A DNA stretch of 63,690 nt, counting the filler, from Nemertoderma westbladi (taxonomy: Eukaryota > Animalia > Xenacoelomorpha): NCBI GenBank assembly GCA_032718475.1. It is 3 parts of 3 records of this genome, joined end to end, with 100 filler letters (N's around TTAATTAATTAA, not from the genome) between each part and the next. Parts side by side here need not be neighbours in the genome. Positions count along the whole stretch, not along the records: positions 46,097 to 63,690 come from JAUCBJ010008520.1; 2 more parts are not named here. The stretch is one strand, 5' to 3'. The number at the start of each line of letters is the position of its first letter. Within the stretch, counting starts at the first letter, position 1. The notes beneath the pieces are model-generated. The model worked only from the letters and a program-made list of their open reading frames with translations. It did not search any database and was not told the origin of the DNA. The translations under genes were made by a program, and so were the position numbers. Below are positions 16,335-63,690 of the stretch, piece by piece.

Positions 16335-16470
16335 ATCGTTTGTTAGGAAGGATTTAGTCGTCCAAGTTTTGGACTGAGGGGGGTTGGGATTGAGGGTGAG
16401 ACGCCCTTCCCACACATAAAATAAAAATAAAATAATATAAAAATTAGAGTTAGTCAGTTAGTTAGGAGTT

Positions 16471-17117: not shown

Positions 17118-17556
17118 GATTAGTAAGAGATAGAGGTGGAAGGGTATATATAGTATAGATATTAGTCAGTAGTTAGTAGCGAGAGGGGGGCATATGAGTA
17201 CAGTTGGATAGATCGTGTAGGCCACGCGACATATACTGCTGTACTGCACAGGCCCATAGAGTAGGTCAGAATGTGGATTACGAAATAGAATAATCCATAA
17301 ACAGTAAAGTAGTAGAATTAAGTTAAATTAAAAATAAATAGAATAAATAGGGCTAAAAATTACAAATTATGGTAACAGAAGGGAAATTATTCTGGAACAT
17401 AATTAAAGCAACGGACAGAAATTGCAAATAGGGTACATTTGTTAGCTACAAAATTAGGTAATAGAAATTTAGGCTAAAAGGCGTAGTTAGATAGAAAATA
17501 GGCCATTCTCGAACTGTGCAGACCATCAGAAACTTATCACTCATCTGTATTGCACC

Positions 17557-20163: not shown

Positions 20164-20830
20164 GACTTCGATGTGGTACGCCTGGAAGGCGCCACGTGAG
20201 ACGTGCGAACTATTAAGTACAAATTCAAAATGATGCAAATAATTAAATAAGTGCAATTGTATGTACGTACGTAGTAATCAGTAGTTTAGTTATGAAATAT
20301 ACGTTCGAAGTAAGTACTATAGTCATTCAACCTTTCTCAATTAGCTACTGGGACTGGGGGGCTAACTGACTATGGTACTATGGACGAGACACTAGACGAT
20401 TTCACACTTCTTGAGTGCGACGGCACAGGAGGGGGGGTGAGATTCGTCAGAAGGGATGAGGTAGTCAAAGAGGGGTCGAGTAAAGGTGATAGTGCGGAGT
20501 GCGGAGAGAGTGCGAATGCAATTCAAGTGTGTGGGAGGAATAGGAGGCTGAGTGAGGGACAGGGAAGTCCGAGAGTTAGAGCGATAGTGAGGAGAAGTAG
20601 AGGAGAGTCAGGGTGAGAACAGTGTGGAGTTAAAGTGGCAAAAGTGTTGGGGAAACAAAAGTCGTGTGAGAGGAGCGCACGATCGGCCCGACATGGGACG
20701 CCAGGCGAACCGGGTGGCGATATCATACCCATAGGGAGCGGCCTGGAAAGCCGGCTCCGAGAGAAAATAGTTCCACCCCACACCCGATACTAGATCGGGA
20801 TCCAGCGGAATTGTAGCGCACTTTAGGAGG

Positions 20831-20868
20831 ATGCTATCTTCTCACCGGGAAGATAGCATGGGGGGGAG
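20831..20868 (+). promoter_or_regulatory. Perfect 11-bp hairpin followed by the polypurine tract
   Basis: atgctatcttc-tcaccgg-gaagatagcat (20831-20859), then gggggggag abutting the 3' LTR. Confidence 0.8.
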
Positions 20869-21378
20869 TGTTAGCGTATTCAATTCCGCTAACACAAACC
20901 CATAAAGTAAGCCGTTAAGCAATATTGGGGGCCACGAGGTTGATTACCCAATCTCGTGCCACCCCAATAAAATGGGAAGGAGAAACACACAATAAGGGTC
21001 AGGGGCCACACCCCTGACCGAGAGAGAATAGCTGGAGTGAAGGGAAACACTCCAAAGGGCGCCAACAGGGATATTAGCCAATGGGAGGGAGGCACCGGCT
21101 AGGTACAGTAACAAGGCCAACCCGTGCAATATAACCAGTTAACGGTAATCAGTTATTTCAGTTATCTCATTGTGTTGGTCGGTTTAGCTAGGATAGGACC
21201 GGAACTTTAATTACCGTTGTGTAACCACTGTGCAGACATCTATATCTATATCTATACTATTATACCGGAGGACTTTATACAGCAATCAGCAATCATCCAC
21301 CTTTTACACACACACGGCGGGAACGCGACGCGTAAATTAAAACCGGATAAACCGGGATCCTTTGTGGATCCCGTCACA
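20869..21378 (+). repeat. 3' LTR (510 bp)
   Basis: Near-identical to 6673-7182; followed by poly-C. Confidence 0.95.
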
Positions 21379-24300: not shown

Positions 24301-24614
24301 CAACGCAGCCAATTGAAGTTATGTTGATATAATCCCAGTAGTTGGTTTAGTATGGTTTACTGAGTTGGATTTCGTTGGGTAAGTTTTACTATTAACAAAC
24401 TATGGTGTATGAGCGGGAAATTTGAAAATGTTAAACCCCAATCGCTGGCATCTGTTTTTTGTTAATACTGTAATACAGTACCGGTACCTAATTCTGTAAT
24501 TAGTTTACTAGGCTACCTACTGACCTACCATACATTCTGACATTAGTTTATTAATAGGGCCTAGTTACCCTACCACTACAGAAAGGGGATTCACCCCATA
24601 TCCGCTATCTGGAC

Positions 24615-25466
24615 ATGAATAACCGACCAATCTCTGATAAAAACCTCAGTTTCATGCGGAACATCAACACAAAACTCTTCGAAGAATGGGTTGTGGATGA
24701 ACTACAATCTAAAGGTGTTGATAATATCAATAATCTTTCTATAGGGAAGAGAAGAGATAGTCTGTTGCACTACGCGACCAAGTACAATCGGGTGGATCTG
24801 TGCGAGGTTTTAGTATCGAAGTTTGGCATATCAACAGAAATATCGAATTCCGAGGGTCAACGGCCTATCCATGTTGCTACGAGTTTGGGTTGCGTGGAAT
24901 CGATTTCTTTCCTTTTATCTTCCGGAGCCAACGTTAATTCTCTTAAGCGGGCGGACTGGACTCCGTCAATGTTAGCCAGCTCCAAGTCGAATATTACTAT
25001 TCTTAACTTACTAATACAACACAAAGCGAATTTACACTTGAAAAATAAAGACGGCTGGAATTGTTTCCATTTAGCATGTCGGGAAAGAAGTACAGATGTT
25101 TTAAATTTGTTACTTTCGATTGACCCTACATTGAATAGGACCGTTAGTAGAAACGGACGAACCCCTTTACACACGGCTTGTTTGCACGGCAACATTGAGG
25201 TTGTCCGCTTCCTATTAACCAAATGCCGTGACTCTTCTATCAATGAAGCTGATAGTTGTGGCAGTACCCCGGTAATGGAATGCGTTCGGGGCGACCATGT
25301 TGATGTACTGGAGTTTCTGGTGGGAGAAGGAGTTGATATCGACAAAGTGGATAGGGTGGGAATGAACTGTACCGATGTCGCTGAGTTTTGTAAATCTATA
25401 AAATGCTCTCGTTTCCTCAGCGATTTGCAATGCCCAACTAAATCTTTGGTGAGTTCAGAGTCGTAA
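24615..25466 (+). CDS. ANKRD16: Ankyrin repeat protein, ANKRD16-like, single coding exon (283 aa)
   Basis: LKRADWTP.MLA, LKNKDGWNCFHLACRE, RTPLHTACLHG, DSCGSTP match the ANKRD16 repeat series as I recall it. Confidence 0.8.
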   Translation: MNNRPISDKNLSFMRNINTKLFEEWVVDELQSKGVDNINNLSIGKRRDSLLHYATKYNRVDLCEVLVSKFGISTEISNSEGQRPIHVATSLGCVESISFLLSSGANVNSLKRADWTPSMLASSKSNITILNLLIQHKANLHLKNKDGWNCFHLACRERSTDVLNLLLSIDPTLNRTVSRNGRTPLHTACLHGNIEVVRFLLTKCRDSSINEADSCGSTPVMECVRGDHVDVLEFLVGEGVDIDKVDRVGMNCTDVAEFCKSIKCSRFLSDLQCPTKSLVSSES

Positions 25467-27814: not shown

Positions 27815-29165
27815 CCGTGCTGCAGTAAAGACTGTGCTGGTCTATGGCAGTACTTGCTGGGACGTTTCTGTGCAGCAGTATAGACTGTGCAGGCATATGG
27901 CAGTCCTTGTTAGTACGTTTTTGTGCAGCAGTGGAGACTGTGCTGGTCTATGGCAGTTCTTATTAGTACGTTTCTGTGCAGCAGTACAGACTGTGCAGGT
28001 CTATGGCAGTACTTGCTGGGACGTTTCTGTGTAGCAGTAGAGGTTGTGCTGGTCTATGGCAGTCCTTGTTAGTACGTTTCTTTTTACCAGTAGAGATTGT
28101 GCTGGTCTATGGCAGTCCTTGTTAGTATAATATTTATGTGCAGCAATATAGACTGTACTGGTCTATGGCAGTCCTTGTTAGTATGTTTATGTGCAGCATT
28201 AGAGACTGTGCTGGTCTATGGCAGTCCTTGTTAGTATGTTTATGTGCAGCATTAGAGACTGTGCTGGTCTATGGCAGTCCTTGTTAGTTCGTTTCTTTGT
28301 ACCAGTAGAGATTGTGCTGGTCTATGGCAGTCCTTGTTAGTACGTTTCTATGCAGCAGTGGAGACTGTGCTGGTCTATGGCAGTCCTTGTTAGTACGTTT
28401 CATTGTACCAGTAGAGATTGTGCTGGTCTATGGCAGTCCTTGTTAGTATAATATTTCTGTGCAGCAATATAGACTGTACTGGTCTATGGCAGTCCTTGTT
28501 AGTATGTTTATGTGCAGCATTATAGACTGTGCTGGTCTATGGCAGTCCTTGTTAGTATGTTTATGTGCAGCATTAGAGACTGTGCTGGTCTATGGCAGTC
28601 CTTGTTAGTACGTTTCTTTGTACCAGTAGAGATTGTGCTGGTCTATGGCAGTCCTTGTTAGTACGTTTCTATGCAGCAGTGGAGACTGTGCTGGTCTATG
28701 GCAGTCCTTCTTAGTACTGTACATTTATGTGCAGCATTATAGACTGTACTGGTCTATGGAAGTCCTTGGTAGTACGTTTATATGCAGCATTATAGACTGT
28801 GCTGGTCTATGACAGTCCTTGTTAGTACTGTACATTTCTGTGCAGGCAGTAGAGACTGTGCTGGTCTATGGAAGTCCTTGTTTGTACGTTTCTGTGAAGC
28901 AGTAGAGACTGTGCCGGTCTATGGCAGTCCTTGTTAGTACATATCTGTGCAGCAGTAGAGACTGTGCTGGTCTATGGCAGTCCTTGTTAGTACTGTACAT
29001 TTCTGTGCAGCAGTAGAGACTGTGCTGGTCTATGGCAGTCCTTGTTAGTACGTTTCTGTGCAGCAGTAGAGACTGTGCCGGTCTATGGCAGTCCTTGTTA
29101 GTACATTTCTGTGCAGCAGTAGTGACTGTACTGGTCTATGGCAGTCCTTGTTAGTACGTTTCTGT
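27815..29165. repeat. 53-bp minisatellite
   Basis: gcagcagtagagactgtgctggtctatggcagtccttgttagtacgtttctgt, about 25 variable copies. Confidence 0.92.
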
Positions 29166-29683
29166 GGATCAGTTGGCGACTGACCGAGAGATTAGGTGGC
29201 GTCTCTGGTCTCACCGAGTACTGCGATCAAAAGATTTTATGACGACTCTTTTTGGTTCTGACGGCATGGCACCACAGTGCAGCGTAGCCAATTGTTATGA
29301 ACCGGAGATTAATTATTAACCGGAGATACGGATGAAGAAAAAGAACGTAGCAACTCTATTTCTTTCATAACGTACAGTATGCCTATACATACAATAATTA
29401 AATGGAAACATTTAGACCGTTAACTGAGAGCACAGATATCGCTTTTCGCCACTAACTGATAGCTATCAGATGACGATGAATAAAATTGTACTCAAACTAA
29501 ATTCAAACTGTAGGGCCCACATACAGCTAGAGTTCAATATCTAATCAAAAGTTGGTGTAGGCCTACAGTATATCAGTATAAGTAGGTGTAGGTCTACAGT
29601 ATATCAGTTGGGTTTTTAATTTGAATAATACGAGATGTGGATAACGGGAAGCGCATAATAAACGTAGATTAATTATTTAGTCT

Positions 29684-31465: not shown

Positions 31466-31474
31466 ATTGCTTAC

Positions 31475-32397
31475 CTGCAACATCCGTCGCGACAAACCCC
31501 AAATCTCCAAGGCAACCAGCCCGGCTTACATACGCACCACAAAGAAACGCAACACATTAAGGGTAGACACAGTACCACGATGAGGGGTATAAGCCACAAC
31601 ATTTGGTCTACTGGTGGCCCGGGAGTGGGCGTCGTAGTGGTTATCGGAGGGGTGGTAGTCGGGAAAGCGACGGCCGTGATTCGGTATTCGAACTCGACGT
31701 GGGACGAGAAGGCATTAGTGTAGACCTGTAGGACGAAGAGGACGTTGGGGCCGGAAGTGGTGACCGTAGTCTCGAGAGGAAGGTTACCTTCGGCACAGCC
31801 GTGGTGTTCGTCCAGTAGCGTCTCGGTAGAATCTCCATCGTAGATCTTGATGTGCGTTGGTTCTGCAGGACATTTCAATATGTCATATTGTGCGACTGAT
31901 TGGTCGTCAGGCCAACATAGATGGCAATATTTCGCACAATAAAGCTCAGCGACATCCCTCTTAGCGCAACACGCAGCTTCGTCAATTTCCATGGTCGAAA
32001 GGGCTAGGTCAAAAACTAAAAATCCGAAATTTGTTGCCGCGCATTCCTGTTCAGTGTACTTCGATTGATCGACACACCTTTCCTTATCATTCTCAGAAAA
32101 GGAGCATATTTTTAGTTTAGTAATCTCCACGACAAATTTATCGATGCGTTCGTCGTCCGTAGTGAATTGCACCCTGCAACTTCGACCGTTAACGTAAATG
32201 TCTTTGGATTTGTCGGTGGCAGGGTCTCGGTATACTTTCCACGAGGTTTCTGCAACGTCGGGGCCAATATCTGTCAGTTTGTGAACGTAGTTCTCTTCTG
32301 ACAATTTGGTGCCACAAGGGAATGGAATATCAACCACAGCAGAAAATGCCACATTGAAAGTAATTGCCACCAAATAAGCCAACTGTAATTTATGCAT
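31475..32397 (-). CDS. Exon 1 of a type I membrane protein: signal peptide, CUB domain with ShKT-like insert, Thr/Pro stalk, Cys-rich TM (spliced product ~457 aa)
   Basis: MHKLQLAYLVAITFNVAFS signal; CG...Y.NGRSCRVQF; IKIYDGDS...GC...TTSGPNVLFVL; TTTPPITTTTPTP; LWLIPLIVVLCLPLMCCVSLW; AG|GTAAGC donor. Confidence 0.8.
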
Positions 32398-33029
32398 GAT
32401 ATCAAGTTTATATGATATTATTTTTGTGGGTAATTAATATATTGTTCATTATTTCATCATTATTGTTCTGTAGAAAAATGTAATGATAAAGCTATTTCCA
32501 GAATCATTATTGTTCGGGATTTAGGCCTACATTTGGAAAACAATAACTGCCATGAATTATTTTACCTTCAGTATTTGTCTAACTAAGTTCAATCCTATAT
32601 ATACTAACTACGCTATCATTAAAAATATGTTTTGAGAAAAAACAATATTATTTTTTCAAGATTGTTGTAATAAATATGCATTCCACTGGACCTGGATACC
32701 CTGATATAGTCCTGCACGATATAAAGAAGCTTCTCTTGGATTTATAGGAGGGAATATATGTTAATCCTAATCTATATTCTTGGAATCAAATCAGAAATAA
32801 CATAAACATATAAATTTAAGGAATACTGCATACTGTATATGTTGAAGTCTCTTTTTTTGTTATGCATTGCTTCCGGTGTAAGAGAGCATGGATCAGTCAT
32901 CTAGATACAGGTCTGAGTTTATCATTTTCTTTGTGCAAATCATTGCACAAGCTATGCCATTTACTCTTTACGCATTGCAATGCAATGTGTAAAGAGTAAA
33001 TGGGATATCTTAGCTTAGCAAAGTCAGAT

Positions 33030-33294: not shown

Positions 33295-36200
33295 TCATCC
33301 CTTCACATCCATATTAATGCCAGGTAGGCATGCAATCCCTGCACATCCATATGAATACCAGGTAGGCCTGCCATCCCTGCACATCCATATTAATACCAGG
33401 TAGGCCTGCCATCCCTGCACATCCATATGAATACCAGCTAGGCCTGCCATCCCTGCACATCCATATGAATACCAGGTAGGCCTGCCATCCCTGCACATCC
33501 ATATGAATACCAGGTAGGCATGCCATCCCTGCACATCCATATGAATACCAGGTAGGCCTGCCATCCCTGGAAATCCATATTAATACCAGGTAGGCCTGCC
33601 ATCCCTGCACATCCATATGAATACCAGGTAGGCCTGCCATCCCTGGAAATCCATATTAATACCAGGTAGGCCTGCCACCCCTGCACATCCATATTAATAC
33701 CAGGTAGGCCTGCCATCCCTGCACATCCATATTAATGCCAGGTAGGCCTGCCATCCCTGCACATTCATATGAATACCAGGTAGGCCTGCCATCCCTGGAA
33801 ATCCATATTAATTCCAGGTAGGCCTGCCATCCCTGCACATCCATATTAATGCCAGGTAGGCCTGCCATCCCTGCACATTCATATGAATACCAGGTAGGCC
33901 TGCCATCCCTGGAAATCCATATTAATACCAGGTAGGCCTGCCATCCCTGCACATCCATATTAATGCCAGGTAGGCCTGCCATCCCTGCACATCCGTATGA
34001 AACCAGGTAGGCCTGCCATCCCTGCACATCCGTATGAATACCAGGTAGACCTACCATCCCTGCACATCCGTATGAATACCAGGTAGGCCTGCCATCCCTG
34101 CACATCCATATTAATGCCAGGTAGGCCTGCCATCCCTGCACATTCGTATATACAAACCAGGTAGGCCTGCCACCCCTGCACATCCATATTAATACCAGGT
34201 AGGCCTGCCATCCCTGCACATCCGTATGAATACCAGATAGGCCTGCCATCCCTGCACATCCGTATGAATACCAGGTAGGCCTGCCATCCCTGCACATCCG
34301 TATGAATACCAGGTAGGCCTACCATCCCTGCACATCCGTATATACAAACCAGGTAGGCCTGCCACCCCTGCACATCCGTATGAATACCAGGTAGGCCTGC
34401 CATCCCTGCACATCCATATGAATACCAGGTAGGCCTGCCATCCCTGCACATCCATATTAATGCCAGGTAGGCCTGCCATCCCTGCACATCCGTATGAATA
34501 CCAGGTAGGCCTGCCATCCCTGCACATCCGTATGAATACCAGGTAGGCCTGCCATCCCTGCACATCCGTATGAATACCAGGTAGGCCTACCATCCCTGCA
34601 CATCCGTATATACAAACCAGGTAGGCCTGCCACCCCTGCACATCCGTATATACAAACCAGGTAGGCCTGCCATCCCTGCACATCCATATTAATACCAGGT
34701 AGGCCTGCCATCCCTGCACATCCGTATGAATACCAGGTAGGCCTACCATCCCTGCACATCCGTATATACAAACCAGGTAGGCCTGCCACCCCTGCACATC
34801 CGTATATACAAACCAGGTAGGCCTGCCATCCCTGCACATCCCTATTAATACCAGGTAGGCCTGCCATCCCTGCACATCCGTATGAATACCAGGTAGGCCT
34901 GCCATCCCTGCACATCCGTATGAATACCAGGTAGGCCTGCCATCCCTGCACATCCATATTAATACCAGGTAGGCCTGCCATCCCTGCACATCCATATTAA
35001 TACCAGGTAGGCCTGCCATCCCTGCACATCCGTATATACAAACCAGGTAGGCCTGCCACCCCTGCACATCCGTATATACAAACCAGGTAGGCCTGCCATC
35101 CCTGCACATCCCTATTAATACCAGGTAGGCCTGCCATCCCTGCACATCCGTATGAATACCAGGTAGGCCTGCCATCCCTGCACATCCGTATGAATACCAG
35201 GTAGGCCTGCCATCCCTGCACATCCATATTAATACCAGGTAGGCCTGCCATCCCTGCACATCCATATTAATACCAGGTAGGCCTGCCATCCCTGCACATC
35301 CATATTAATACCAGGTAGGCCTGCCATCCCTGCACATCCATATTAATACCAGGTAGGCCTGCCATCCCTGCACATCCGTATGAATACCAGGTAGGCCTGC
35401 CATCCCTGCACATCAATATTAATACCAGGTAGGCCTGCCATCCCTGCACATCCATATGAATACCAGGTAGGCCTGCCATCCCTGCACATCCATATGAATA
35501 CCAGGTAGGCCTGCCATCCCTGCACATCCATATGAATACCAGGTAGGCATGACATCCCTGCACATCCGTATAAATACCAGGTAGGCCTTCCATCCCTCCA
35601 CATCCATATGAATACCAGGTAGGCCTGCCATCCCTTCACATCCGTATGAATACCAGGTAGGCCTGCCATCCCTGCACATCCGTATGAATACCAGGTAGGC
35701 CTGCCATCCCTGCACATCCATATTAATACCAGGTAGGCCTGCCATCCCTGCACATCCATATTAATACCAGGTAGGCCTGCCATCCCTGCACATCCGTATG
35801 AATACCAGGTAGGCCTGCCATCCCTGCACATCCATATTAATACCAGGTAGGCCTGCCATCCCTGCACATCCATATTAATGCCAGGTAGGCCTGCCATCCC
35901 TGCACATCCGTATATACAAACCAGGTAGGCCTGCCACCCCTGCACATCCATATTAATACCAGGTAGGCCTGCCATCCCTGCACATCCATATTAATACCAG
36001 GTAGGCCTGCCATCCCTGCACATCCATATTAATACCAGGTAGGCCTGCCATCCCTGGAAATCCATATTAATACCAGGTAGGCCTGCCATCCCTGCACATC
36101 CATATTAATACCAGGTAGGCCTGCCATCCCTGCACATCCGTATGAATACCAGGTAGGCCTGCCATCCCTGCACATCCATATTAATACCAGGTAGGCCTGC

Positions 36201-37470
36201 CATCCCTGGAAATCCATATTAATACCAGGTAGGCCTGCCATCCCTGCACATCCATATTAATACCAGGTAGGCCTGCCATCCCTGCACATCCATATTAATA
36301 CCAGATAGGCCTGCCATCCCTGCACATCCGTATGAATACCAGGTAGGCCTGCCATCCCTGCACATCCATATTAATACCAGGTAGGCCTGCCATCCCTGGA
36401 AATCCATATTAATACCAGGTAGGCCTGCCATCCCTGGAAATCCATATTAATACCAGGTAGGCCTGCCATCCCTGCACATCCATATTAATACCAGGTAGGC
36501 CTGCCATCCCTGCACATCCGTATGAATACCAGGTAGGCCTGCCATCCCTGCACATCCATATTAATACCAGGTAGGCCTGCCATCCCTGGAAATCCATATT
36601 AATACCAGGTAGGCCTGCCATCCCTGCACATCCATATTAATACCAGGTAGGCCTGCCATCCCTGCACATCCACATTAATACCAGGTAGGCCTGCCATCCC
36701 TGCACATCCATATTAATACCAGGTTGGCCTGCCATCCCTGCACATCCATATTAATACCAGGTAGGCCTGCCATCCCTGCACATCCATATTAATACCAGGT
36801 AGGCCTGCCATCCCTGCACAGCCGTATGAATACCAGGTAGGCCTGCCATCCCTGCACATCCGTATATACAAACCAGGTAGGCCTGCCACCCCTGCACATC
36901 CATATTAATACCAGGTAGGCCTGCCATCCCTGCACATCCATATTAATACCAGGTAGGCCTGCCATCCCTGCACATCCATATTAATACCAGGTAGGCCTGC
37001 CATCCCTGCACAGCAGTGAATACCAGGTAGTCCGCCATCCCTGCACAGCAGTGAATACCAGGTAGTCCGTCATCCCTGTACAGCAGTGAATACCAGGTAG
37101 TCCGCCATCCCTGCACAGCCGGGAATACCAGGTAGTCCGCCATCCCTGCACAGCACAGCAGTGAATACCAGGTAGTCCGCCATCCCTGCACAGCTGTGAA
37201 TACCAGGTAGTACCAGGTAGTCCGCCATCCCTGCACAGCAGTGAATACCAGGTAGTCCGCCATCCCTGCACAGCCGGGAATACCAGGTAGTCCGCCATCC
37301 CTGCACAGCAGTGAATACCAGGTAGTCCGCCATCCCTGCACAGCCGGGAATACCAGGTAGTCCGCCATCACTGCACAGCTGTGAATACCAGGTAGTTCCA
37401 GGTAGTCCGCCATCCCTGCACAGCCGTGAATATCAGGTAGTCCGCCATCCCTGCACAGCCGTGAATAAGT
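33295..37470. repeat. 4.2-kb minisatellite: 38-bp unit switching to a ~35-bp variant near 37010
   Basis: aataccaggtaggcctgccatccctgcacatccatatt x ~100, then gtgaataccaggtagtccgccatccctgcacagca. Confidence 0.95.
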
Positions 37471-45996: not shown

Positions 45997-46096
45997 NNNN
46001 NNNNNNNNNNNNNNNNNNNNNNNNNNNNNNNNNNNNNNNNTTAATTAATTAANNNNNNNNNNNNNNNNNNNNNNNNNNNNNNNNNNNNNNNNNNNN
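45997..46096. other. Synthetic assembly gap/linker
   Basis: 44 N + TTAATTAATTAA + 44 N. Confidence 0.95.
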
Positions 46097-47408
46097 GGAT
46101 TATATTAAATCGCATCAGGGATCCCATTGAGAGACTGCTCCGTGGAAATCAGAATGGGTTCCGTAAAGGTCGTGGGACCATGGAGCCCATTTTGGCTCTT
46201 AGAAGGATAATTGAAGAATTATCAAAAAAGAAAGACAGGCATCTGGCTGTTATCTTTGTTGACTTCTTCAAGGCCTTTGATTCAGTCTCTCGCTCACGTA
46301 TGTTCAGCATACTTTCATTATATGGGATTCCTGATGAAATTATTGCAGCAATCAGATCAGTATACGATGGTTCGACAACATTTGTGTCTACTGTTGACGG
46401 TGACACAGAACCATTTGAAGTGTTATGGGGCGTCCTCCAAGGAGACACACTTGCACCATTCTTGTTCATTATTGTGGTTGACTATGTTCTACGCATGTCC
46501 TTAGATCATCATAATGATGATGGGGTGATGATAACTCCACCTACTGGCTCCATAAGTCGAGGAAATCCTGCCAAGTACCTAACTGATCTAGACTTTGCTG
46601 ATGACTTAGGAGTACTCTCAGAATCATTAGAGGGAGCCCAACGGCTCCTCAGCTCATTAGAACATGCTGCTTCTTTTATTAACTCCAGAAAGACCAAAAT
46701 TCTGACCGTTAACTTTGAAAGTCCTCAGCAAGTCTCTGATCGGATGAGCCTAAGCTCAAAGGATGGTATGCTTGAGCATGTGGACGACTTCTGTTACCTG
46801 GGATCATGGATCCGGAAGTCAGGTGAGGACCTTCGAATACGTAAGGGAAAGGCATGGGCAGCTTTGAATAGGCTTTCCAGGATTTGGAAGTCACCGAGAA
46901 TTAATCGGAAACTTAAGGTCCGGTTATTTAGAGCAGCAGTAGTTCCAGTACTCCTCTATGGGAGTCCATGCTGGGCTCTAACTGCTGAGGACACCAAATC
47001 TCTGGACGGCACATTCACAAGAATGCTACGCCGGGTTCATTGTGTCAAGTTCAATGCACACATCTCCAACCAGACACTATATAATATTGTACAGTAGGTG
47101 TCTCATTGGTTCCCCCAAGCTTGACACTAGAACAAAATCGCCTCCGCTTTGCAGGACATTGCTTTCGCCGTGAGGTCCAGCCAGTGCATAATCTTGTACT
47201 TTGGCAGCCTCATGGAGTGAATAAGCATGGTGGACAGCCCATGACTTTCTTGAGACGCATCTTAAAGGACACTGGCCTTAAAGATGCGGATGATCTAGCA
47301 AATGTCATGGGTGATAGGGAGTTGTGGCGGTGCAATTTTGTCGATGAGCCGGCACAGCATTCTTAAAAATGCAGCTGCAATGCAGCATGCCGATCCTAGT
47401 AGTAGTAG
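46097..47408 (+). mobile_element. RTE-clade LINE, RT to 3' end, with (TAG)n tail; broken near 47095
   Basis: QNGFRKGR, FVDFFKAFDSV, GVLQGDTLAPFLF, LDFADD, YLGSWI, LLYGS, RLRFAGHC; tagtagtagtag at ~47397. Confidence 0.9.
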
Positions 47409-51611: not shown

Positions 51612-52659
51612 TTATATGTTACAGTACATAGGGTTTGTGTATTTATTTATGATATGGCGTTTGAGTGAACCAATACACATTTTCAGATATACTTTGATGC
51701 AATCATGACACTTGCATGCCCATAAATTACCACTATTCAATCTAGTAACCTCGGCTTCGGGGCACCTGTGCTTTCCTTTTTTACATCGCGGTACCACGGA
51801 GATTGCTTCAACAACTTTTATGTCAATCACATTTGAATCTTTCAACTTTTGAATAAGATCGTAGTAGAAATGTGTGGTGCATTCGTGGCACTTGGAATTC
51901 ATGAAGTTGGTGGCTGTTATCGGTGAGACACCCGCCATTCTGTTCTTGGAACAACAATTGTTGTCTGACCGACAACCGGTACTGGTGAACCCGTCAAAGA
52001 GAGACTCAGTCTTCAAATTCCGCTTGAATGAACTCACTTGGAGGGAAATCTTTTGTTAGCATAAAAATATCAACTGGTAAATATTCACGTTGCTTAGCTG
52101 CAGTACTCCTACCATTTAATTCGCTTTCGTGCGGCAACTGACGTAAAATTGGTAGAATAGGTGATTCTTTGGATTTATAAAGAAAGTTGCGTGCCCAGGT
52201 CACCGGGTTTCGGGTATGTTTCTGTTGATTTACGGTTGTTTTAGCTTGTTCCTGTTCGACTCTCGCGACTTCGACCTGTCTCTTAAAGTCCTTAACATCC
52301 TCCACAATTATCTCATGTTTTTTGTAGACTTTGTCAAGGAATACCTTGTAGTAAATTTCTAAACGATTAATCTTGTTAGCATATTCAGAGAATTTACTCC
52401 AATGTTTATGTCCATCGTTCATTCGATGTAACTTCGCTCTATCTCTCGGATGTGCCAGAGGATTACTCTCTATGTCCAATGTATTGTAATATGTTAAAAC
52501 TTCATTTACTTTATTAAGCCATTCTGAAGATAGTCTCTGTTGTTCTATCCACCAGTTATGGCTGTCTTTCAGTAATTTTTCTAAAATAATAGCTGTAAAC
52601 TCATCGTCTCTCTCTTGAATTTGTTCTTCACCTTTATCAATGTCACGGCATTTATTCAT
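51612..52659 (-). CDS. Two overlapping orphan ORFs (217 aa helical/charged; 141 aa Cys-rich), possibly one frameshifted or spliced gene
   Basis: ORF track 52006-52659 and 51612-52037; long for AT-rich DNA; no family recognised. Confidence 0.4.
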
Positions 52660-55319
52660 TCCCCTTGCATTTATTCTTGAATTATAAATATGAAAATCGA
52701 TTAGTTAATTATTGTTTCGTTTCATCGCTACTGTATTAACTAGGTAAACTACACTAATGTTACCGTAGCGACCAAAGCTACTGGAGAATTTTAACAATAA
52801 ACAGAAGCGGCCCACGGAGTGAAACCAATCCAAACATTGGCAACACAAGAATAACAATACTATGTAGATTTGGTCTCATCTAAGTAAGTGAAACAATCTC
52901 ACCCATTAAACCACACGGGAGCTTAGGTGCGTGCAATATACTGTAGGCAATATGTACAGTATAACATACCCATGTAACTACAGAGAAGGCCAGGTTTGGT
53001 AGCTGTACTGTATATTAATCAGCTGACACAAACGCTGAGCCAATCTGAGCCGGTAAAGTGAATATTGAGTATACCTACATAATTATCCAATCAATCTTCA
53101 AAAAATACGGAGATTAACATATTCATCCAATCAACGATCAACAGTTTATTATGTTGGTTGTACATTATTTATTCTAGATCAGTAGTTACGTTGACGGTAA
53201 TTATTAATAAATTTGCATTAAAGTGTTAGTTGTAAGAGCTTTTTCTCCAGTAACTACAGTAGTTTAATGGAATTTTTGGTTTGATTATTTGATTAACTTT
53301 CTGGAATATGATTTGTCTACTGTATGCCTCGAAAATGCTGATTAAAAACTCGGACAAAAATTTTTTACTTTTTTTAATAAGAAATAGTTAATTTTTTTTT
53401 ATTTATTTGTTATACTGTATAAATATCCGCATTTTTTATCCGCATATATTATCCGCATTTCTTCGAAATCGTAAAAACATATTTTTCTTAAATTAATAGG
53501 CGTACCTTTTTCAACATTATAACACCTAAACTGTAGAGTCAGACGATCGCAGGGCTGGGTCCTGCTGACAACACCGCCATTATATTTGCAATTACAGTAG
53601 CTAGCTACTGTAATATTACGAATTTAAAGTAAATCAATTGAATATAGAGGGCCCAATAAAATAGGTCATATCGCCGGTAAAAAGGCAAAAGAGCATTTAT
53701 GCAAGCAGATTCCTGGCAATGTCGTCCACTTTCTGGCGAAATATTAAAGCCTGAAGTGATTTTTGTGCAAAATTACTGTATAGCGTTTTTTAGGAAATTT
53801 TTCGGGTGTAAAAGGGCATTTGTGTAAAATCTATGTAAAGGAAGTTGGTAGGCCTACAACTAACGGTACTTCGCCCTGTCAGCACCCTCTGTCATTTTTT
53901 TAATCATAAATTTTTTGAGAGTTTTTGAGTGTTTTTTTTACATTATGTCAACTTAGCAGCGTTCTAGTAATTACTCGTAACGCTGCAAAGTACTACTGTA
54001 ATTTGCAGCGTTGCGGCCTACTGTATAGGACCGAACGCTGCAAAGTAATCATTAGATTAGACAGGAAACAACTTAAGGGGAGGTACCCCATCAGGATATT
54101 TTATTTTTAAACAGCTCTACCTTCGTGTTGTACGTCAATATCACTGTTATGTTGTGTTCAGCCATTACCATAATATAAAATTTATTGAAAGATGATTTGC
54201 TTCGCTGTCGTTCCTAACAAAAATTGTTCTTTGTCCCCTAACGACCAAATTTTCATTGTAACACGAAAATGGAATGATCTGAGTTTATAATTTTTTTTTT
54301 TTGTGATGGAGGGTTTACTTGTGGTTCATTTTATAATCAGACCACCCCAAAATACGCAGGAACCCGAAAGGAAATTGAAGAAAATTTCCAACTATCCAAA
54401 ATTTCTTATTTCATCAAATCTATCCCTAAAGTTTTTGGTTTTCGTTATATCTCGTGAAGTTCCAATTAAATCCGGTCGATTTTGTTAAAATATTATAAAC
54501 AGCCTGTTATTTTCTAATTGTTATATTTTGAACACTCAAAGTTCTAAACTTTGAGATTTTGCGTGATAAAGATATCAAATTCTCTGTCCGTAACAAAGTC
54601 TTTTAAATTATTATGCCCATAATTAAAATGTTCAAATTAGCATCCATAAAATCCTTTCTTCACATACCGACCGCTGATTGGTTGACAAAATATAACTAAA
54701 TTACATACATTACATACATACATACATTGCATGCAAAGGTTTCTTTTCAGCGTTAAAGACCCTTGTTTATTTATGTAGACTTCCCTCGCTGCGCTCGTTC
54801 GGTACATAAATAAACTCAGGTAGTAACCCTGCAAAGTGCTACTTTGCACGCAATGATGTAAATAGTACCATCTTACTACACAACTCACTAATATAATAAT
54901 AATAATATTCTCCCACTCCCTCATTCCTAATACCATTTACATAATCTAAACAAACAGCTGAATATTCCTATACAAATAAACCATATTGAAAACTACTGTA
55001 TATTGAAAAAAAATGTTCTACTGTATGTTTTTTTTTCCCATATAATACGTACTAACTTTATTCTTAAATTGGTAGGCCTACTTGTTTGTTGCTAAATTCT
55101 TTAATAAAACATAGCTATCACAGTCCAACAGTAGTGTTACAAGATTAATTCAACTGTAGTATTTTAATATATTGCTTCCAAAGTTACTGCGATTCATATT
55201 ATTGTACTCTTCAACTGTCCATGTTGCCTTACTCAATGTTAAAATAATTTAGTGCTCGAATATTTATTACGTATCTAGAGAGCCGCATGACCTGACATTA
55301 TAGAGTCAGATCACCTTGA

Positions 55320-57476
55320 TCAGACCTTTTGGAAGTTGTTAAAGTCCGCTGCTGGAAATACAAGTAACAACACATCAGGTATTTGTCTGGACAAATTAGA
55401 AAACCATTTTCGCAAACTAAATAATACAAGTGAGTTTGAGTTCACGGATATTGGGTACATCCCGCCTGAAAATTCGAATGTAAATCTCAGCAGAGAAATA
55501 TTCGAAAATTTCCTAAGCGAACCGTTTTGTGAGGCTGAGATGAATAATGCTATCAATAGATTAAAACGCGGTAAAGCGGCGGGGCCTGATGAACTCGACA
55601 CAAATATTTTTATTTTGGGCTGTGAACATTTGTCTCCAATAATTACTGCGCTTTTTAACGCTGTGTTATATTCTGGAATTTTTCCCTCACAATGGGCACT
55701 TGCGGACTTAATTCCAATTTATAAAAACAAAGGCAATCGTGCTGACGCAAATTACTATCGGGGAATCTCTTTACTTAGCGTTTTAGGAAAGTTGTTTACA
55801 GCGGCTATAAACGCACGCTTACAGTGGTGGGAGGATGCCTTTGGAATAATTATTGATTCCCAGGCTGGTTTTCGCCCTGGTTACAGGACGACTGACCAGT
55901 TATTTATACTTAGCAACCTGATAACGCAGTACTTAAATAAATCCAAAGGTTGTAAGTTTTATTGCGCCTTCATAGATCTGCAGAAGGCATTTGATATGAT
56001 TGATAGAAGTGCTCTATGGTTTAAACTTAATGCATTGGGATTTTCAGGGAAAGTTTATAAAATAATAAAAAGTATGTACGCCGCTGCCAAAACAAGAGTC
56101 ATCTGGGGGGACAATATGTCGGATTCCTTTAACTGTCTAGTTGGAGTCAGGCAGGGCGAATGCCTTAGCCCTTTTCTATTCGTTTTGTTCATTAACGATT
56201 TAGAAGCTGAGCTGAGCAAAGGAAATGCCACTGGTGTAGACGTTGGCTTATTTAAACTCTATCTGCTACTTTTTGCAGATGACATTGTTCTACTGGCTAA
56301 TACTGTGGCGGGGTTGCAAGCTTCACTTGATACTCTAGGTTGCTACTGTACTTTTTGGGGGCTGACTGTAAATTTGACAAAATCAAATATTGTTATATTT
56401 AGACAAGGGGGCACCCAAGCGGCACATGAAACTTGGACATATAAAGGAGTAGGTATGAAAGTTGTACCTCATTACACGTACCTTGGAATTACCTTTACTT
56501 CAACAGGAAAATTTATTAAGGCTCAAGAAATATTGACTGAGAAGGCAAACAAATCTTACTACACGCTCTGCCGCTATATGAACTCATTCCCAAACATCGG
56601 TTTTGACCTAAAACGACATCTCTTTAACAGTTTGATTAAGCCTATTTTGCTGTATGGATCTGAGGTATGGGGATTCACAAAAGGGAGGGACACAGAAAAA
56701 CTACAGCTGAAATTTCTGAAAAATGTTTTGGGTGTGAAAACTTCAACGCCAGACTTTATAGTCTATGGAGAAACCGGTGTCTTCCCGTTGACAATAGACC
56801 GAACCATTGGGATTATAAAATTCTGGTTACGATTATTGTCATTGCCATCATATAGATTAGTAAAACGGGTATATCTCATATCAGTGGAAGGGCTTAATTC
56901 TCAAAGGGTTCCAAATTGGACGTCAGGGGTTCGGGATACACTTAATAATTTGGGATTTTCTTGGGCTTGGGAAGCGCAATCAGTACCAAACGGGAGGGAG
57001 TTCCTAGCAAAGGTGAGGGATACGCTACAGAGTCAGTATATCCAAAATTGGTGGTCAACCCTAGAGAATTCCCCAAAAGGCGACTTTTATGTCAAAGATA
57101 CATTTCGAACCGAACCGAACCGTACCTTATAGTTCTTAAAAATTACCCCACTCTGAAACGTACAATAGCTAGTTTCCGATGCACTTCACATAGATTAAAA
57201 ATCGAAGAAGGACGCTGGTACAATATCCCACGGTTGAACAGGCTATGTCCAGTATGCAACTTGGGGCGTATTGAATCAGAATACCACTTCCTTCTCGAAT
57301 GCCCAATATACAGTAGCTTACGCGAACAATACCTGCCACCCCAATACAGTAGGTTCCCATCTATGTACAAATACCGTAGGATTCTACAGTACACCGATCC
57401 AACAATAGTTAAAAATCTCTCCCTGTTTTTGTACAACGCGTTTTCACTTCGCTCCACAATTTTAGGCCAAAATTAA
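55320..57476 (+). mobile_element. 5'-truncated RTE-X-like LINE: RT plus C-terminal CCHC; frameshift at a cgaac triplication (~57106-57120)
   Basis: GKAAGPD, YRGISLL, QAGFR, FIDLQKAFD, GVRQGECLSPFLF, LFADD, YLGI, LLYGSEVWG; RCTSHRL.IEEGRW...RLCPVC...ESEYHFLLECP. Confidence 0.88.
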
Positions 57477-57679: not shown

Positions 57680-58137
57680 CCAAGGAGTGGCTGTTGGAGG
57701 AGTTCGTGCGGACCTGGGTCAATCAGAGGGTGGCGTCTTTTGACATCGCTGTTATTAACACGCTGACGCCCCCTCTTATGCTCAAACCAATAGATCGGTT
57801 ACCTCCCTGCTTGAACAACGGGTCGCGCGTAGAAACAGCACTACAACAGCGTGTGCGAAGCGAGAAGGATGTTCTTTACACCCTTGTTGGTACCACCGAC
57901 GGCATATGGTGTAGAGAGGCGGAGATTTTTATCCGGCACCTCACGGACTCACTGGTGACTCGGAGTGAAGGAATGCGGGAACGTGGCTTTGCTGGGGTAC
58001 TTGGAGGAGTCCGTAGGAGGCTCCAATTCACCCTCTTCAGGTTCAGCTCGCTCTGCCTAAGGGGTGGTCGTCATCCATTGGTGATCTCTCGGCTTTGGCG
58101 ACGGGGCGGGTCTGCGTTGTCTCGACCTCCGGGATAA
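57680..58137 (+). mobile_element. 3' fragment of a restriction-like-endonuclease non-LTR element (CRE-like)
   Basis: ASFDIAVIN...SEK...LVGTTDG.W..EA..F...L...RRRLQFTLFR....CLRGGR resembles the CRE-type PD-(D/E)xK C-terminus. Confidence 0.55.
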
Positions 58138-58836
58138 TTATTAGATGAATGTAATTACTTTTAGCCTACTGATATTTATTTATTTATTTTGTTATATTTT
58201 ATTATATTAAATTATTATTTTACCCAATGCTGTGTAAGTTTTAAATTAATCTTAAGAACTACAAACTAGAGAGCCGCTTAACAACAATATTGGATATTGA
58301 GTTCAGTTTTGGAGTACACCTTGCAGACACTAAAGTTGCAATAATTTTTGAGTGCTGGATTTTGCTCAAATTACGTACAAATCTTTTTTTTACGTCGATG
58401 CTCTTTCAATCTATGTAATAAAATTTAAGAAATTCCACCGAAAATGTTTTACTTTACTTTTTTCTCCGGGAAATAAAGTAAAATCAATCTCTAGTTACCA
58501 ATCGGTAGGCATTAGGTCTGAGCGATTTAGGGATGCCGCCGAAACTCGAGAATGACGGATAGTTCTGAAAGAGGACACTTACCGAAAGCTATCAAAATTT
58601 ATGACAAAGTTATCAAAAGGTTCTAATAAATAATAAATTAATTATAATAAAAGTACAGTATGGGGTGAAAGATATCCATTTATTGATAGGGGGAACATTT
58701 CGCACTCTCAGCAGCCGATAGCATTCTTAAACAAAAAATATCCCTTGCGCGAAATATAATTTCACTGATACTGTACACTAAGGGCTCTCCTCTACTACTA
58801 CTACAGTTCTATGACTGAGCTGCATTCGGTTACTTA

Positions 58837-58884
58837 CCCTTCTGTGTCCCTGGGGTCACACATGACCCCAGGGACACAGAAGGG
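58837..58884. mobile_element. 48-bp perfect hairpin, piggyBac-like mini element
   Basis: 22-bp arms cccttctgtgtccctggggtca / tgaccccagggacacagaaggg, 4-nt loop; TTA left, TTAA right. Confidence 0.6.
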
Positions 58885-59149
58885 TTAATTATACCAATAA
58901 TCCCCACAGCAGAAGACTAACACAATGCGGTCCCTACACTGCTAATCAGACCGGCTACCGTTTGACCGCATGGCGGCGCATTACAGCGCATTGAGGATGG
59001 CCTATGCTATACATTACAAACTCTTATAATACTTTTAAAGCGAAATTCGATTCGGGTACTGATAACGTCGATAGTACAGTAAGACCTGTATGAGGCCTCA
59101 CCACTGATCTATCCCTTGATTCAAGTAGTCCGTATGTACTGTAGTACTG

Positions 59150-59420
59150 TAGGCCATCCTTCAGTCCAAAGATTGGCAAGAATTACCACTTGGGGACAAA
59201 AGAGACTACACAATATACCACCAAGTATGGCATTGTTATGCAAAACACGGATTAGATGCAAAGAATGTCTAGAAATATAACACAAAATAGATACTACTGT
59301 AGATACACATCGAGAAATGCATCAATGGCTACAAATGCGGATGAAAAACGACAAACTGTATTAGGAGTTGTACCAGTGGAACCAAGACATTGATGTTAAT
59401 AGACAGTGGAGCATCCTTTA
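59150..59420 (+). pseudogene. Decayed BEL/Pao gag-protease junction related to the main element
   Basis: WQELPLGDK (cf WQALPREDQ), MATNADEKRQTVLGVVPV (cf EKRGTVLLGVVPV), TLMLIDSGASF (cf TLMLVDSGAAF). Confidence 0.7.
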
Positions 59421-61675
59421 TATATTCGATCCGGCTTAACGCCCCGGCGGCTATATTGTAATAATGATTATCATAAGTAAATAACTTTACATATAACAAT
59501 TCAATCGGACAACAAACACAGATCGTATCATCAATAAAAACCCTATTGCGTTAACAGATAAATAAAAGCAGCCGTGCAAGCATACGTGTCGGTGTCGTAC
59601 ATAGTAAGAATTTATGATCCACTCAGACTTGCGCCACATTTAATCGTCAATGGCCAACTGCGTTACTCGATGCAAGCGGGAAACCAACCATTGGCGATCA
59701 TTTTGAGATGAAAAGAAATCACTCATTACTATTTTTGTGGACAAAATTTTAGATAGGACGTTTATCATTTGATTTGTCTGATTGACGATTGCAGGAGAGT
59801 TGAGGGTTGAACTAAAACAATCAGATATAAATAGTCGGGAGTTATGGGGAATCATACCCGATAAATGCAATCCTGTGAGAGAGCTGGAGTGGAGCCCAGT
59901 GGAAGCAGACTGTAGCGTGGTGGAATGGAATGCAGACATGGTGGAACCTGAGCCCGAAAGCAAATAAACACTATACCGTTCATGTGTGAATAAGGGATTC
60001 TCAATTCTATTGATTAGGGATATTTGACAATGTCTGTTCGAACGGAATTTGAGCATGTTTCTAGTGATTCGAACAATAACTAGAGATACTTTTTGGACAA
60101 AATTAGATATTAGCCCGTGCCATTGCGCACACCTCGAACTACCATAATTGTCTGTCAACATTAATGAGAGTTCCTGTGAGGCGAGCCACGGTGTGAGTGA
60201 GCCTTGGCGTACTGCCGTAGTGGTACCATTATTAAACCTGTCGTTCAGTTGATCTGTAGCTATTTTTTTGCAGTGTTCAATTTTGAACGTGAATAACTCT
60301 ATCAATCCTCGATGAAATGTAACCACACTTTGTAGACAAATAGTCTGTCAAAAGTTTAGAAATTTTCCAAGTAGAATTTGCGTGGGGCCTTCGTGCAGCA
60401 CCAGTGTAACTGTCTTACAGTTATAATAAATTCATTTTGTTCGCGCTTTCAGACCTTTGGCAGTTTAACCCGCCAAATTAGGATGTCTTTTAGATAATAA
60501 ATCACTTTTAGCCTATGACAAGTATTTGATTCACTACACTAGTCGAAACCAATCTGTGCGCGATCATTCACCCGCTGGATATACCCGGGAGATTGGGTTC
60601 GACGGCTTAATCTTATTGCTATGTAAGCCTAATGTATTATTCGACTGACAGTATTATATAATCTCTGACAATATTATTCACCTTCGGGGAATATTAACAG
60701 TTCCTTTAGGACGTGGCGCTCTATCTATATAAACAGAGTTATGACTTAAACTACTCACAACGATATGGCTTAGTTATAATTCACATATATGGCGCATTCT
60801 TTAGGAAATGCTTCGTTATCAGTCTCACTCATACACAATGCCTGCACAATACTGCACACTGATCTGCCGATCTTCACTGATTTTAGTTATATATAAAAGG
60901 AACACGGACCGACTCATGTAGGGTCTATCAAATAACATTAGATTCACTTCAAACCACTTTAACATAAGTCACAATCGTTATATGTAACCTTTCTCTCTTA
61001 CCTTCGGTATATCAAGAATATTGGGTTTCGGGGTTATTTATCGTTATTCCAAATATAATAATTCATCAACCATATTATGAAGAACTGACAGTAAATAGCA
61101 GTATAACAATAGAAAGACCAAACATCAGTTTGATAAATCAGTTTGGTTTGTTTTGTTATTATAACCAGTTTGATAACGGATATATGTCCTTATAATTAAG
61201 CCTACTAGTGTTAGACTAAAACAGAAAAGCACAAATATTTCCAAGCCGTTCTCTCCTGGCTCAGGACAGAAAGGCCAACAACACTGAAAACTGATAAGAA
61301 TAACCTTATTTACAAAGGCTTCCACCCAACACAGAGAAAGAGCATACAGATAGGAAAATTCAGTTCAGTAGATCTGTGATAGGTCGAAATCAAAATCAAC
61401 TCAAATCCTATTGGCAGATACTTTCCCAAGCTGGTTGGACAATCAAACGTAGCCCAGATCCCTTCGCACAGCGAATCAGCCAATCAGCCGGTAGCTTGCG
61501 CTATTCGAGTTATAGATCCCTTTTTAGAGTATTCCAGCGCCTGGGGGGAACTGGTTAGCAAGGCAAACGAATCAGTTATCCCACAAAAGCTTTTACACCG
61601 CTCCCAGAAAATGGGATTTAAGTCTATAAAATATACAAAATCACAATTTCTAATATACATAAATACTCTAAACAG

Positions 61676-63690
61676 TTAGTCTTTCTTGCGCGGACGGCGT
61701 TTACGCAGTTTTTTAAAGCTAGCAAGAGTCCTTTTCTCTTTGGGGCGAGCCACTTTACGAGGAGGGCTGTAGCTCCTAGGCGAAGGGTGCAATATAATTG
61801 CATCAGAAGGTGCAGGGTTACGATCGGTATACCCGCCGGTCGAAGTACCTGGTTGATTAATATCAACCTCAGTGGAGCGAGGTCTAACGGCCTTTAGAGC
61901 GCGTCTCAGGACAGCAGCTCCTACGGGTCCTTGACGGGTCGTCTGGACACTAGCGGTGGGTGGACCGTGAGTGGTGAGGAACTTTCTCGGTTTAATGGTT
62001 CTCTCCAGCTCGCGTTCTCGGGTTCGATATTCATATGGTCGCCGAGATATTTCCTGTAGTTCAGGATGCGAGTTCACAAAGATGTCGCCATACTCAGGGT
62101 CCTGACGGATAAAATTGATCAGGTGATATGTGGTTATATCATTAGGGTTAACGTTTCTAAGGTATTTCCTGACAAACTTGGTGGAAATACACTCACCAAC
62201 ACGCTTCATTAACTCGTAACTTGGTACGCGTGTTTTCTGTTCAATCGACGCGAATAGATAAGGATGGAACGCGTAAACTCCCTCGTAAGCTCGTCCAGGG
62301 TAATAGCGATGTCGGGATTCGCAATGTAAATCGGCGTTCGCTTCCCAAGCTCGGATGTATCGCAGGGTGATCATCTCGTCTACGCTCTCTAAATCGCGAT
62401 TAAAGGGACAATTGTAACTTTCATGTCCTTTAAGTTGACAGTAGTGACATTGAGTCATAAATTGTGGGCAGACGGCAAATATATGAGAGTTATTAAGCCG
62501 GCAATAAGCACAATATATTTCCATCATTGGTTGTTCGAGGAAATAGGAACAAGGTACGCTCGAGTCTAGAGGAGTGAAGTGGTCTCTCGATGCGCATAAT
62601 CGACAACGTTTTCGAGAAACGTAGTTGGCGTGTCGATAATCGTACGCTGTGAGACGCTGTGGACCTTGATACCACTCTATGACATAATCACTGTCACTGC
62701 TCCGGGAAGCTGTAGGTTGAATCGCTTCTGATTCCAAGCATACTGGTTCATCCTCCAGCTGTATAGACGAAGTGGGTGCGTCGGTCTCCGTAAGTGGACC
62801 CACTGTCTGTATTTCCACGACAGAATAACCTGTAGATATTCGGGGTCTTTGTATAACGGATGAATGTAGGTTCTGTATACAAACGTCTTGAAAAACGGCA
62901 AATCCAGCGCTACTCAGTTTCTCCGCAGCTGAGTCTCTCAGACTGAGTTTGGTCAGCGCGCGGTCCTTGAACTGACTATCGACGTTACGGAACGGAGTCA
63001 GAAAGCGCCGGAAACATTCGAAACGTATGAACTTATTGTGTTCGTCTAACTTGGCGAGTTTAGTTCCAAGTATTAAGGGATGAGCGCGTATGGTACGACT
63101 GCACACATCGGCTAGCCAACCGGCAAGTGCTGCGTTTTCAAAGATCGTGTATATAGCTAAGGAAGGACGAAGTGGAACACTCATAAAGCTATATACGGCA
63201 CCAGGCGCAGTTAATGGTCCATCAAAATATAAACGAGAGTAATGATCTCCATATACTTGCTGGTAATTGGTAGGATTTCCAACTTTGAAATTCCACCCAT
63301 ATTCTTGAAAGGCAAGATGTCCGATGGATGTCCGTTGTACCTTAGTAATGTCGCTGGGTGTATTGGCATACATAGTGCGAAAGAAACCTCGGCCTTCGGC
63401 CCAAGGAGCAATCAGCTGAGTATCAACGAAAGGGTATGGAATGTTTTCCATATTCCGGAAGTCGTTTTGGAGATCTCCATAAACAGCTGAGCCGATTTTT
63501 AGGATTCTTTCGTTAAACAACATTTCGAGCACAGGTTGGGGTAACATTGATCCATCGATACCCATGGCCGGTTTGCGCTCGGTGTCGGTGACGTAACGCT
63601 GCGCGAGCTCGAATTGTCCATGTCGAAGTTTCTTTTGTGTCTCCGTAAGGGTTTCAAAAGAATAATCAATCACGTCGGAACACGCTCGAG
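61676..63690 (-). CDS. Homologue of the extra exonuclease-zinc-knuckle ORF; N-terminus runs off the window
   Basis: LPQPVLEMLFNERILKIGSAVYGD, FVDTQ, YG...VYSF...YTIFEN; CRLC..RDH, CAYCRLNNSHIFAVC, CHYCQLKGHESYNC; basic tail KKLRKRRPRKKD; frame open to 63690. Confidence 0.78.
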   Translation of the reverse strand, partial: RACSDVIDYSFETLTETQKKLRHGQFELAQRYVTDTERKPAMGIDGSMLPQPVLEMLFNERILKIGSAVYGDLQNDFRNMENIPYPFVDTQLIAPWAEGRGFFRTMYANTPSDITKVQRTSIGHLAFQEYGWNFKVGNPTNYQQVYGDHYSRLYFDGPLTAPGAVYSFMSVPLRPSLAIYTIFENAALAGWLADVCSRTIRAHPLILGTKLAKLDEHNKFIRFECFRRFLTPFRNVDSQFKDRALTKLSLRDSAAEKLSSAGFAVFQDVCIQNLHSSVIQRPRISTGYSVVEIQTVGPLTETDAPTSSIQLEDEPVCLESEAIQPTASRSSDSDYVIEWYQGPQRLTAYDYRHANYVSRKRCRLCASRDHFTPLDSSVPCSYFLEQPMMEIYCAYCRLNNSHIFAVCPQFMTQCHYCQLKGHESYNCPFNRDLESVDEMITLRYIRAWEANADLHCESRHRYYPGRAYEGVYAFHPYLFASIEQKTRVPSYELMKRVGECISTKFVRKYLRNVNPNDITTYHLINFIRQDPEYGDIFVNSHPELQEISRRPYEYRTRERELERTIKPRKFLTTHGPPTASVQTTRQGPVGAAVLRRALKAVRPRSTEVDINQPGTSTGGYTDRNPAPSDAIILHPSPRSYSPPRKVARPKEKRTLASFKKLRKRRPRKKD

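Follow-up and report, generated by a model that had tools for sequence, protein, structure and literature searches.

A preliminary description of the window analysed here, a stretch of 63,690 nucleotides made of three joined parts of the genome of Nemertoderma westbladi (GCA_032718475.1), presented the open reading frame at its end (ORF A) as the second, highly diverged member of a family of proteins that combine an exonuclease with zinc knuckles, the first member being encoded by an ORF placed at 17557 (hereafter ORF B). Are the two proteins related, what carries ORF A, and what could its product do? The answer that we favor, with a probability of about 0.6, is that ORF A would belong to a retrotransposon and code for an accessory protein, a 3'-5' exonuclease that binds RNA and has the architecture of trypanosome RNase D; it is likely a distant relative of the product of ORF B.

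ORF A runs on the minus strand from 63688 to 61676, over 670 codons devoid of stops, and leaves the window at its 5' end (the first methionine in the window is residue 42). The frame is open, as had been described, while each of the other five frames of the region contains 22–43 stops; the probability that such a frame is open by chance is about 2e-15. Behind the exonuclease-like N-terminal region, which is discussed below, the same strand codes for three CCHC-type zinc knuckles (62408–62605, residues 362–427), a post-knuckle region (62030–62407) and a basic C-terminal tail (61679–61798). The three knuckles that had been pointed out are present, although only the third has the canonical spacing (the first reads H-x9-C and the second C-x5-H). 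So is the basic tail, with 16 lysines or arginines among the last 40 residues of ORF A, and 13 among those of ORF B; in ORF A it may serve in nuclear localisation or RNA binding. The post-knuckle region matches no known family in Pfam. A LOTUS-like domain was considered there and dropped, as no Pfam match went with it. AlphaFold was uninformative, both for a single-sequence model (pLDDT 30.6), too uncertain to recognise an RNase H-like fold, and for a second, helical model of the post-knuckle region (pLDDT 42.9).

The copies of the region 59500–63690 were analysed by aligning the Logan contigs of four public runs out of nine, in which the summed depth is not a copy number. In run X1, 21,710 contigs align, with identities that go from 99% down to less than 90%, and their summed depth rises from 43–230 in the flank (59500–60199) to 3e4 in the bin that follows, then to 7e4–1.8e6 from 60340 on. 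In run X4, the pieces that cover the repeat fall at several separate levels of identity. ORF A is part of a multi-copy mobile repeat with many diverged copies, and a single-copy host gene is excluded. It is true that cellular proteins combining an exonuclease with knuckles exist and that the 5' end of ORF A is out of view, which would be compatible with an exon of such a gene, but the thousands of contigs of graded identity, the sharp step in depth at 60200–60400 and the uninterrupted 2-kb frame leave this explanation with next to no probability; the context is that of a transposable element rather than of a spliced host gene, as the preliminary description supposed. We also observed a peak of depth over the end of ORF A (61600–61880), where run X4 is 20–40 times as deep as elsewhere in the ORF; this part of the repeat may be shared by a non-autonomous derivative.

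The copies also tell whether the protein matters. Among the best-supported 40 of 649 differences, 22 fall outside the ORF and 18 inside, 16 of which are synonymous (P = 3e-7 against an assumed 30% of synonymous changes). A single indel lies within ORF A among the best-supported 12 of 50, although the ORF makes up about 60% of the repeat. One loose end, represented by 10 contigs, carries five consecutive third-position changes at residues 13–17, all silent, and pieces at 82–85% identity span 63275–63690 without gaps. Since the differences considered are the best supported ones, they reflect the divergence between subfamilies and are not an unbiased dN/dS. These observations support purifying selection on ORF A, whose protein is kept; a gene that is selected for inside a mobile family should be of some use to the element that carries it.

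The nature of ORF B's host is clearer. ORF B (17491–20163, plus strand; methionine at 17605, 852 amino acids) codes for a DEDDy-like domain followed by a long linker, three knuckles and the basic tail, and it is located in a BEL/Pao element, after the integrase and before the 3' LTR. The element is recognised by its paired TG...CA LTRs, its polypurine tract, its DUF1759 gag and the order protease, reverse transcriptase, RNase H (Peptidase_A17), integrase. On the plus strand, the 5' LTR (6673–7182, 510 bp, TG...CA) is followed by gag-pol in several frames (9593–16162; DUF1759, protease, reverse transcriptase, Peptidase_A17, integrase and DUF5641), and the polypurine tract (20860–20868) directly precedes the 3' LTR (20869–21378), which shows two differences from the 5' LTR over 510 bp. 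The insertion is young, and poly-C is found on both of its flanks.

Several features of this element deserve mention in their own right. It sits inside a poly-C tract (6634–6672 and 21379–21403), in which the first 7 bases of the LTR are repeated 26 bases upstream (6647–6653), possibly as a target preference or as the scar of an earlier insertion. Downstream of the 5' LTR (7182–7240), there is no TGG-type primer-binding site and a 24-bp tandem repeat is found instead. Long open frames with charged and Asn-rich repeats precede the DUF1759 gag frame (7235–9693); the first of them has no Pfam match, and they can be read either as an extended gag or as an extra ORF. The RNase H region of pol contains a tandem duplication of about 470 bp (13850–14786), 89% identical, which is odd considering that the LTRs are nearly identical. 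The interval between the integrase and ORF B contains tandem arrays of 40–44 bp (16456–17137).

Because of the analogy with ORF B, our best guess is that ORF A is also hosted by an LTR element. Its repeat continues behind the stop codon as a non-coding 3' part of about 1.3 kb (60400–61675, minus strand), until an outer end at about 60394 to 60440, where it adjoins another repeat. There are several candidate ends, and every one of them reads CA on the coding strand. Within the window, which ends at 63690, we saw no pol, second LTR or primer site for this element, and behind ORF A there is neither a clear polypurine tract followed by TG nor an internal repeat. It may be that ORF A is borne by an element of another kind than LTR retrotransposons, for instance a Penelope/Terminon-like, a tyrosine-recombinase or a DNA element; indeed, DEDDy ORFs are described in both LTR elements and Terminons (PMC5408684, PMC6431247). 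We consider this possible but doubtful, since no Rfam family, the hammerhead included, reaches its gathering score in the region 58000–63690, the 3' end of the repeat has no poly(A) or tandem tail, the candidate ends are all CA, and the distance between ORF A and the end of the repeat is comparable to that seen for ORF B, which is followed by 0.7 kb and then by an LTR of 0.5 kb. Two candidates for the structure of this 3' part were discarded: a hammerhead ribozyme at the end of the repeat, which has no Rfam match, and an LTR at 60405–61595 with 5-bp inverted ends, which the depth pattern does not set apart. A short hairpin at 60405–60425 (in 60388–60425) is followed on the minus strand by a stretch that starts with TGG, like a primer-binding site; this may be due to chance or belong to the adjoining repeat.

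We now turn to the N-terminal domain. In ORF A, NCBIfam RNase D models match residues 51–96 with E values of 0.0019 (TIGR01388) and 0.014, both far under the curated cut-offs, whereas Pfam gives no exonuclease match for either protein, PF01612 itself included, so that the curated cut-offs of Pfam or NCBIfam for DEDDy membership are not reached. In the ESM Atlas, the top match of the whole product of ORF A is a mainly euglenozoan cluster of PF01612 plus zf-CCHC proteins (0.81; a lead only), and 24 of the 30 matches of the N-terminal domain of ORF B are PF01612 clusters (0.94). Four profiles built from 30 bacterial PF01612 domains were also scored against 300 shuffles. ORF A scores above all 300 with two of the profiles (17.3 bits, at the ExoII segment) and not with the other two, ORF B is exceeded by 1, 5, 35 and 56 shuffles, and two of the four profiles give nothing for either protein. 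In ORF A and ORF B alike, the RNase D profile places its ExoII block on the K-[IV]-G-S-A motif (0/300 shuffles in each case), and the two proteins share G-S-A where the bacterial profile reads f-H-a. This confirms independently the ExoII pairing that had been made by comparing the two sequences. In ORF A the ExoII segment spans residues 49–94 (63407–63544, minus strand), with D72 and D89 as acidic residues. A DEDDy-type domain is thus well supported in both putative proteins by the NCBIfam and Atlas matches, the bacterial profiles and the placement of the ExoII block, which bears out the exonuclease-type N-terminal domain of the preliminary description. No HRDC domain was detected after the nuclease, whether with Pfam or with a profile of full-length bacterial RNase D, which aligns with nothing past ExoII; this search is of low sensitivity. 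The idea that ORF A codes for an Rrp6 or RNase D with HRDC was dropped.

The other two catalytic motifs are less clear. With a mixed profile, the best ExoI candidates are D35-x-E37 in ORF A (63578–63586, minus strand; 9/300 shuffles) and D-D-E at residues 116–118 in ORF B (12/300). The former is only third-ranked with the RNase D profile and lies 29 residues ahead of the ExoII lysine, which looks short compared to the 67 residues of ORF B. The ExoI motif of ORF A had been thought to lie beyond the window, which is possibly wrong in view of this candidate. Another one, D8, was rejected (155/300 shuffles).

Regarding ExoIII, the best placement of the RNase D profile's block starts at residue 165 in ORF A and 273 in ORF B, in the ungapped register that the preliminary description had already proposed, and a glutamate replaces the last aspartate. 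The candidate helix of ORF A (residues 165–185, 63134–63196, minus strand) reads Y180-x3-E184-N185. No canonical Y-x3-D motif could be placed in this protein, and the best placement, with E instead of D, is not significant: the block is matched by 204/300 shuffles in ORF A and by 30/300 in ORF B, where the helix alone reaches 17/300, in a total of 28 block tests. The variant Y-x3-E-[DN], proposed earlier as a possibly diagnostic ExoIII, coincides with the best placement of the profile, but these figures do not confer significance or diagnostic status on it.

These uncertainties bear on whether the proteins cut RNA. They could be pseudo-nucleases that merely bind it, in the manner of EXD1 or Maelstrom, with an altered ExoIII. 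The ExoIII aspartate is at best a glutamate, and in the alternative register of ORF B, in which a forced alignment shifts a W-x-x-R-P motif 12 residues earlier, it would be lost, with Phe and Ala in place of the catalytic Tyr and Asp. Next to the candidate glutamate, ORF A has an asparagine where ORF B has an aspartate, the ExoI of ORF A is uncertain, and inactive DEDD derivatives are described as functional in piRNA pathways (PMC5408684). On the contrary, both proteins have acidic residues where ExoI, ExoII and ExoIII are proposed, and we would give the absence of activity about one chance in four. Judging from these motifs, 3'-5' exonuclease activity of the two products is plausible.

Are ORF A and ORF B members of one family? 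All the motifs that the preliminary description quoted were located in both proteins, in the same order, and there is, as it stated, no obvious similarity between the DNA sequences (61001–63690 against 6601–21400; blastn with word 7, no match at E ≤ 1). The alignment of the proteins that it called for gives a mixed answer. It is convincing for the knuckles, which BLASTP matches with E = 3e-7, to the exclusion of anything else; their alignment score is reached by 0/1000 shuffles, and by 3/2000 if cysteines and histidines are kept in place. In local alignments, the N-terminal domains are at chance level (157/1000 and 165/1000 shuffles, z about 1). A global alignment recovers the register proposed earlier with z = 2.8 using BLOSUM62 (12/2000 shuffles), against a maximum of 1.6 for 23 unrelated pieces of other proteins of the window with the same matrix, but z is only 1.4 with BLOSUM45. 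The stretch after ExoII taken alone is not significant (872/2000). As for the post-knuckle domain, which was thought to be shared, the similarity is marginal (37, 81, 246 or 689 per 2000 shuffles depending on length and matrix, z from 0.4 to 2.3) and does not establish the sharing. Beyond the knuckles, the pairwise evidence is thus suggestive only.

It may be that the two ORFs result from separate captures of DEDDy-plus-knuckle genes, the colinear motifs being generic to such proteins. The weakness of the pairwise signal outside ExoII and the knuckles is what one would then expect, and the spacings are far apart (29 against 67 residues between ExoI and ExoII, 182 against 328 between ExoIII and the knuckles). 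The same architecture is found in a cellular enzyme, the trypanosome RNase D (TbRND), and at least two gains of DEDDy ORFs are described in rotifers (PMC5408684). We nevertheless regard separate captures as unlikely: the knuckles resemble each other beyond their cysteines and histidines, the ungapped register of 40 residues after ExoII coincides with the best ExoIII placement of the RNase D profile in both proteins, both have G-S-A in ExoII, unlike the bacterial profile, the order of the domains is the same, and both have a basic tail. A common origin of ORF A and ORF B appears likely, because DEDDy profiles match the two proteins at one and the same segment, ExoII, and because their knuckles align beyond Cys and His; that it is no more than likely is due to the fact that the collections searched yielded no third homolog from which a profile or a tree could be built. 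The earlier view of an old family under purifying selection, rather than of a recent capture, hence holds with respect to selection on ORF A and to the deep divergence of the two ORFs, while a single family is likely rather than certain.

Homologs were sought widely. For ORF A, 0 of 7552 candidates of similar length and 0 of 2307 shorter ones were homologous proteins; for ORF B, the result was 0 of 7991. Scans of metagenomes, genomes and viral contigs returned no homolog of either, nor did tblastn against phages and plasmids, and sequence searches of the PDB gave chance-level matches only, none of them to TbRND. These blanks do not prove novelty, as prokaryotes make up most of the collections searched, or else short words limit the search. 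An exonuclease is reportedly mentioned in the nematode Cer BEL elements by Malik et al. 2000, which would lower the novelty of our observation. In the literature, we found no DEDDy ORF reported in BEL/Pao elements and none with a knuckle array, apart from what the figures and supplement of PMC5408684 may show of knuckles or ExoIII variants.

Two known systems help in thinking about function. The first is TbRND, whose zinc fingers are described as required for RNA binding and efficient trimming (PMC7797062; PDB 7C45). Like the products of ORF A and ORF B, it has a DEDD exonuclease with zinc fingers behind it, at the C terminus, and the top Atlas match of ORF A is of this type; however, TbRND is a cellular enzyme, described with four fingers that come shortly after the nuclease, whereas the proteins considered here have three knuckles beyond a spacer of 180–330 residues, then a post-knuckle region and a basic tail. 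More generally, their ExoII segments match models of RNase D, in the PF01612 family that also includes Rrp6, WRN and Mut-7, but their scores are far under the curated cut-offs, no HRDC is detected and ExoIII is atypical.

The second system is that of the bdelloid rotifers, whose LTR retrotransposons Juno and Vesta and whose Terminons carry DEDDy exonucleases as ORF3 (PMC5408684, PMC6431247). A role in 3'-end processing or in silencing has been proposed for these ORF3s, their function being described as untested (PMC5408684). The likeness lies in a DEDDy ORF of RNase D type with an altered catalytic motif, which follows pol and takes the position of env (as seen for ORF B). There are also differences. 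The motif is DEED in rotifers, whereas ORF A and ORF B keep the ExoII aspartate and it is ExoIII that seems altered, a comparison made with the published description and not with rotifer sequences. The text on rotifers describes a Cys-His-Cys motif in two of the ORF3s and no knuckle array, whereas there are three knuckles here, and the host of ORF B is a BEL/Pao element.

Returning to the reading that we favor, the knuckles and the basic tail of ORF A's product would grip single-stranded RNA, and the DEDDy domain would then trim the 3' end of the bound molecule. We propose this division of labor because the fingers of TbRND serve both in RNA binding and in efficient trimming. As to the target, by analogy with TbRND, whose knuckles deliver small RNAs to its nuclease, we would assign about two fifths of the expectation to small RNAs of the host's silencing machinery, slightly more than a third to the RNA or cDNA ends of the element itself, and the remaining quarter to binding without cutting. 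A bolder proposal is that ORF A and ORF B represent an old, unnamed family of RNases encoded by retrotransposons, in which ExoIII is rewired and the knuckle is triple, and that selection would maintain in BEL/Pao as well as in other elements as counter-silencing factors that destroy the piRNAs or siRNAs of the host; in this strong form, we judge it improbable, at odds of about one to four.

Other features of the window can be noted. An uninterrupted ankyrin-repeat ORF (24558–25466) adjoins an assembly gap, and frames that resemble non-LTR reverse transcriptases were recognised by eye from their motifs at 55291–57476 and 46045–47097. Two orphan ORFs on the minus strand (31471–32433 and 52006–52704) have no significant Pfam match; the product of the first looks Cys-rich and secreted or membrane-anchored. 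There are two satellite arrays, one of 108 copies of 38 bp (33296–37395) and one of 25 copies of 53 bp (27817–29173), and a near-perfect inverted repeat (58831–58891), whose matches to miRNA models are all sub-threshold.

Last, we consider what ORF A means for the biology of these elements. That retrotransposons can have a DEDDy third gene is already in print for rotifers, which limits the surprise. Yet the genes located behind pol are usually read as env, and here two deeply diverged mobile families of one genome keep an exonuclease-knuckle gene, which in one of them, that of ORF A, bears clear marks of purifying selection between copies. Selection tests in rotifers are described for the env-like and GDSL ORF3s only, which proved mostly neutral (PMC5408684), so that a DEDDy-type ORF under constraint adds to the evidence for a role of such genes in the life of the element. 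ORF A is a compact and testable candidate for how animal retrotransposons may counter small-RNA silencing or process the ends of their own RNA.
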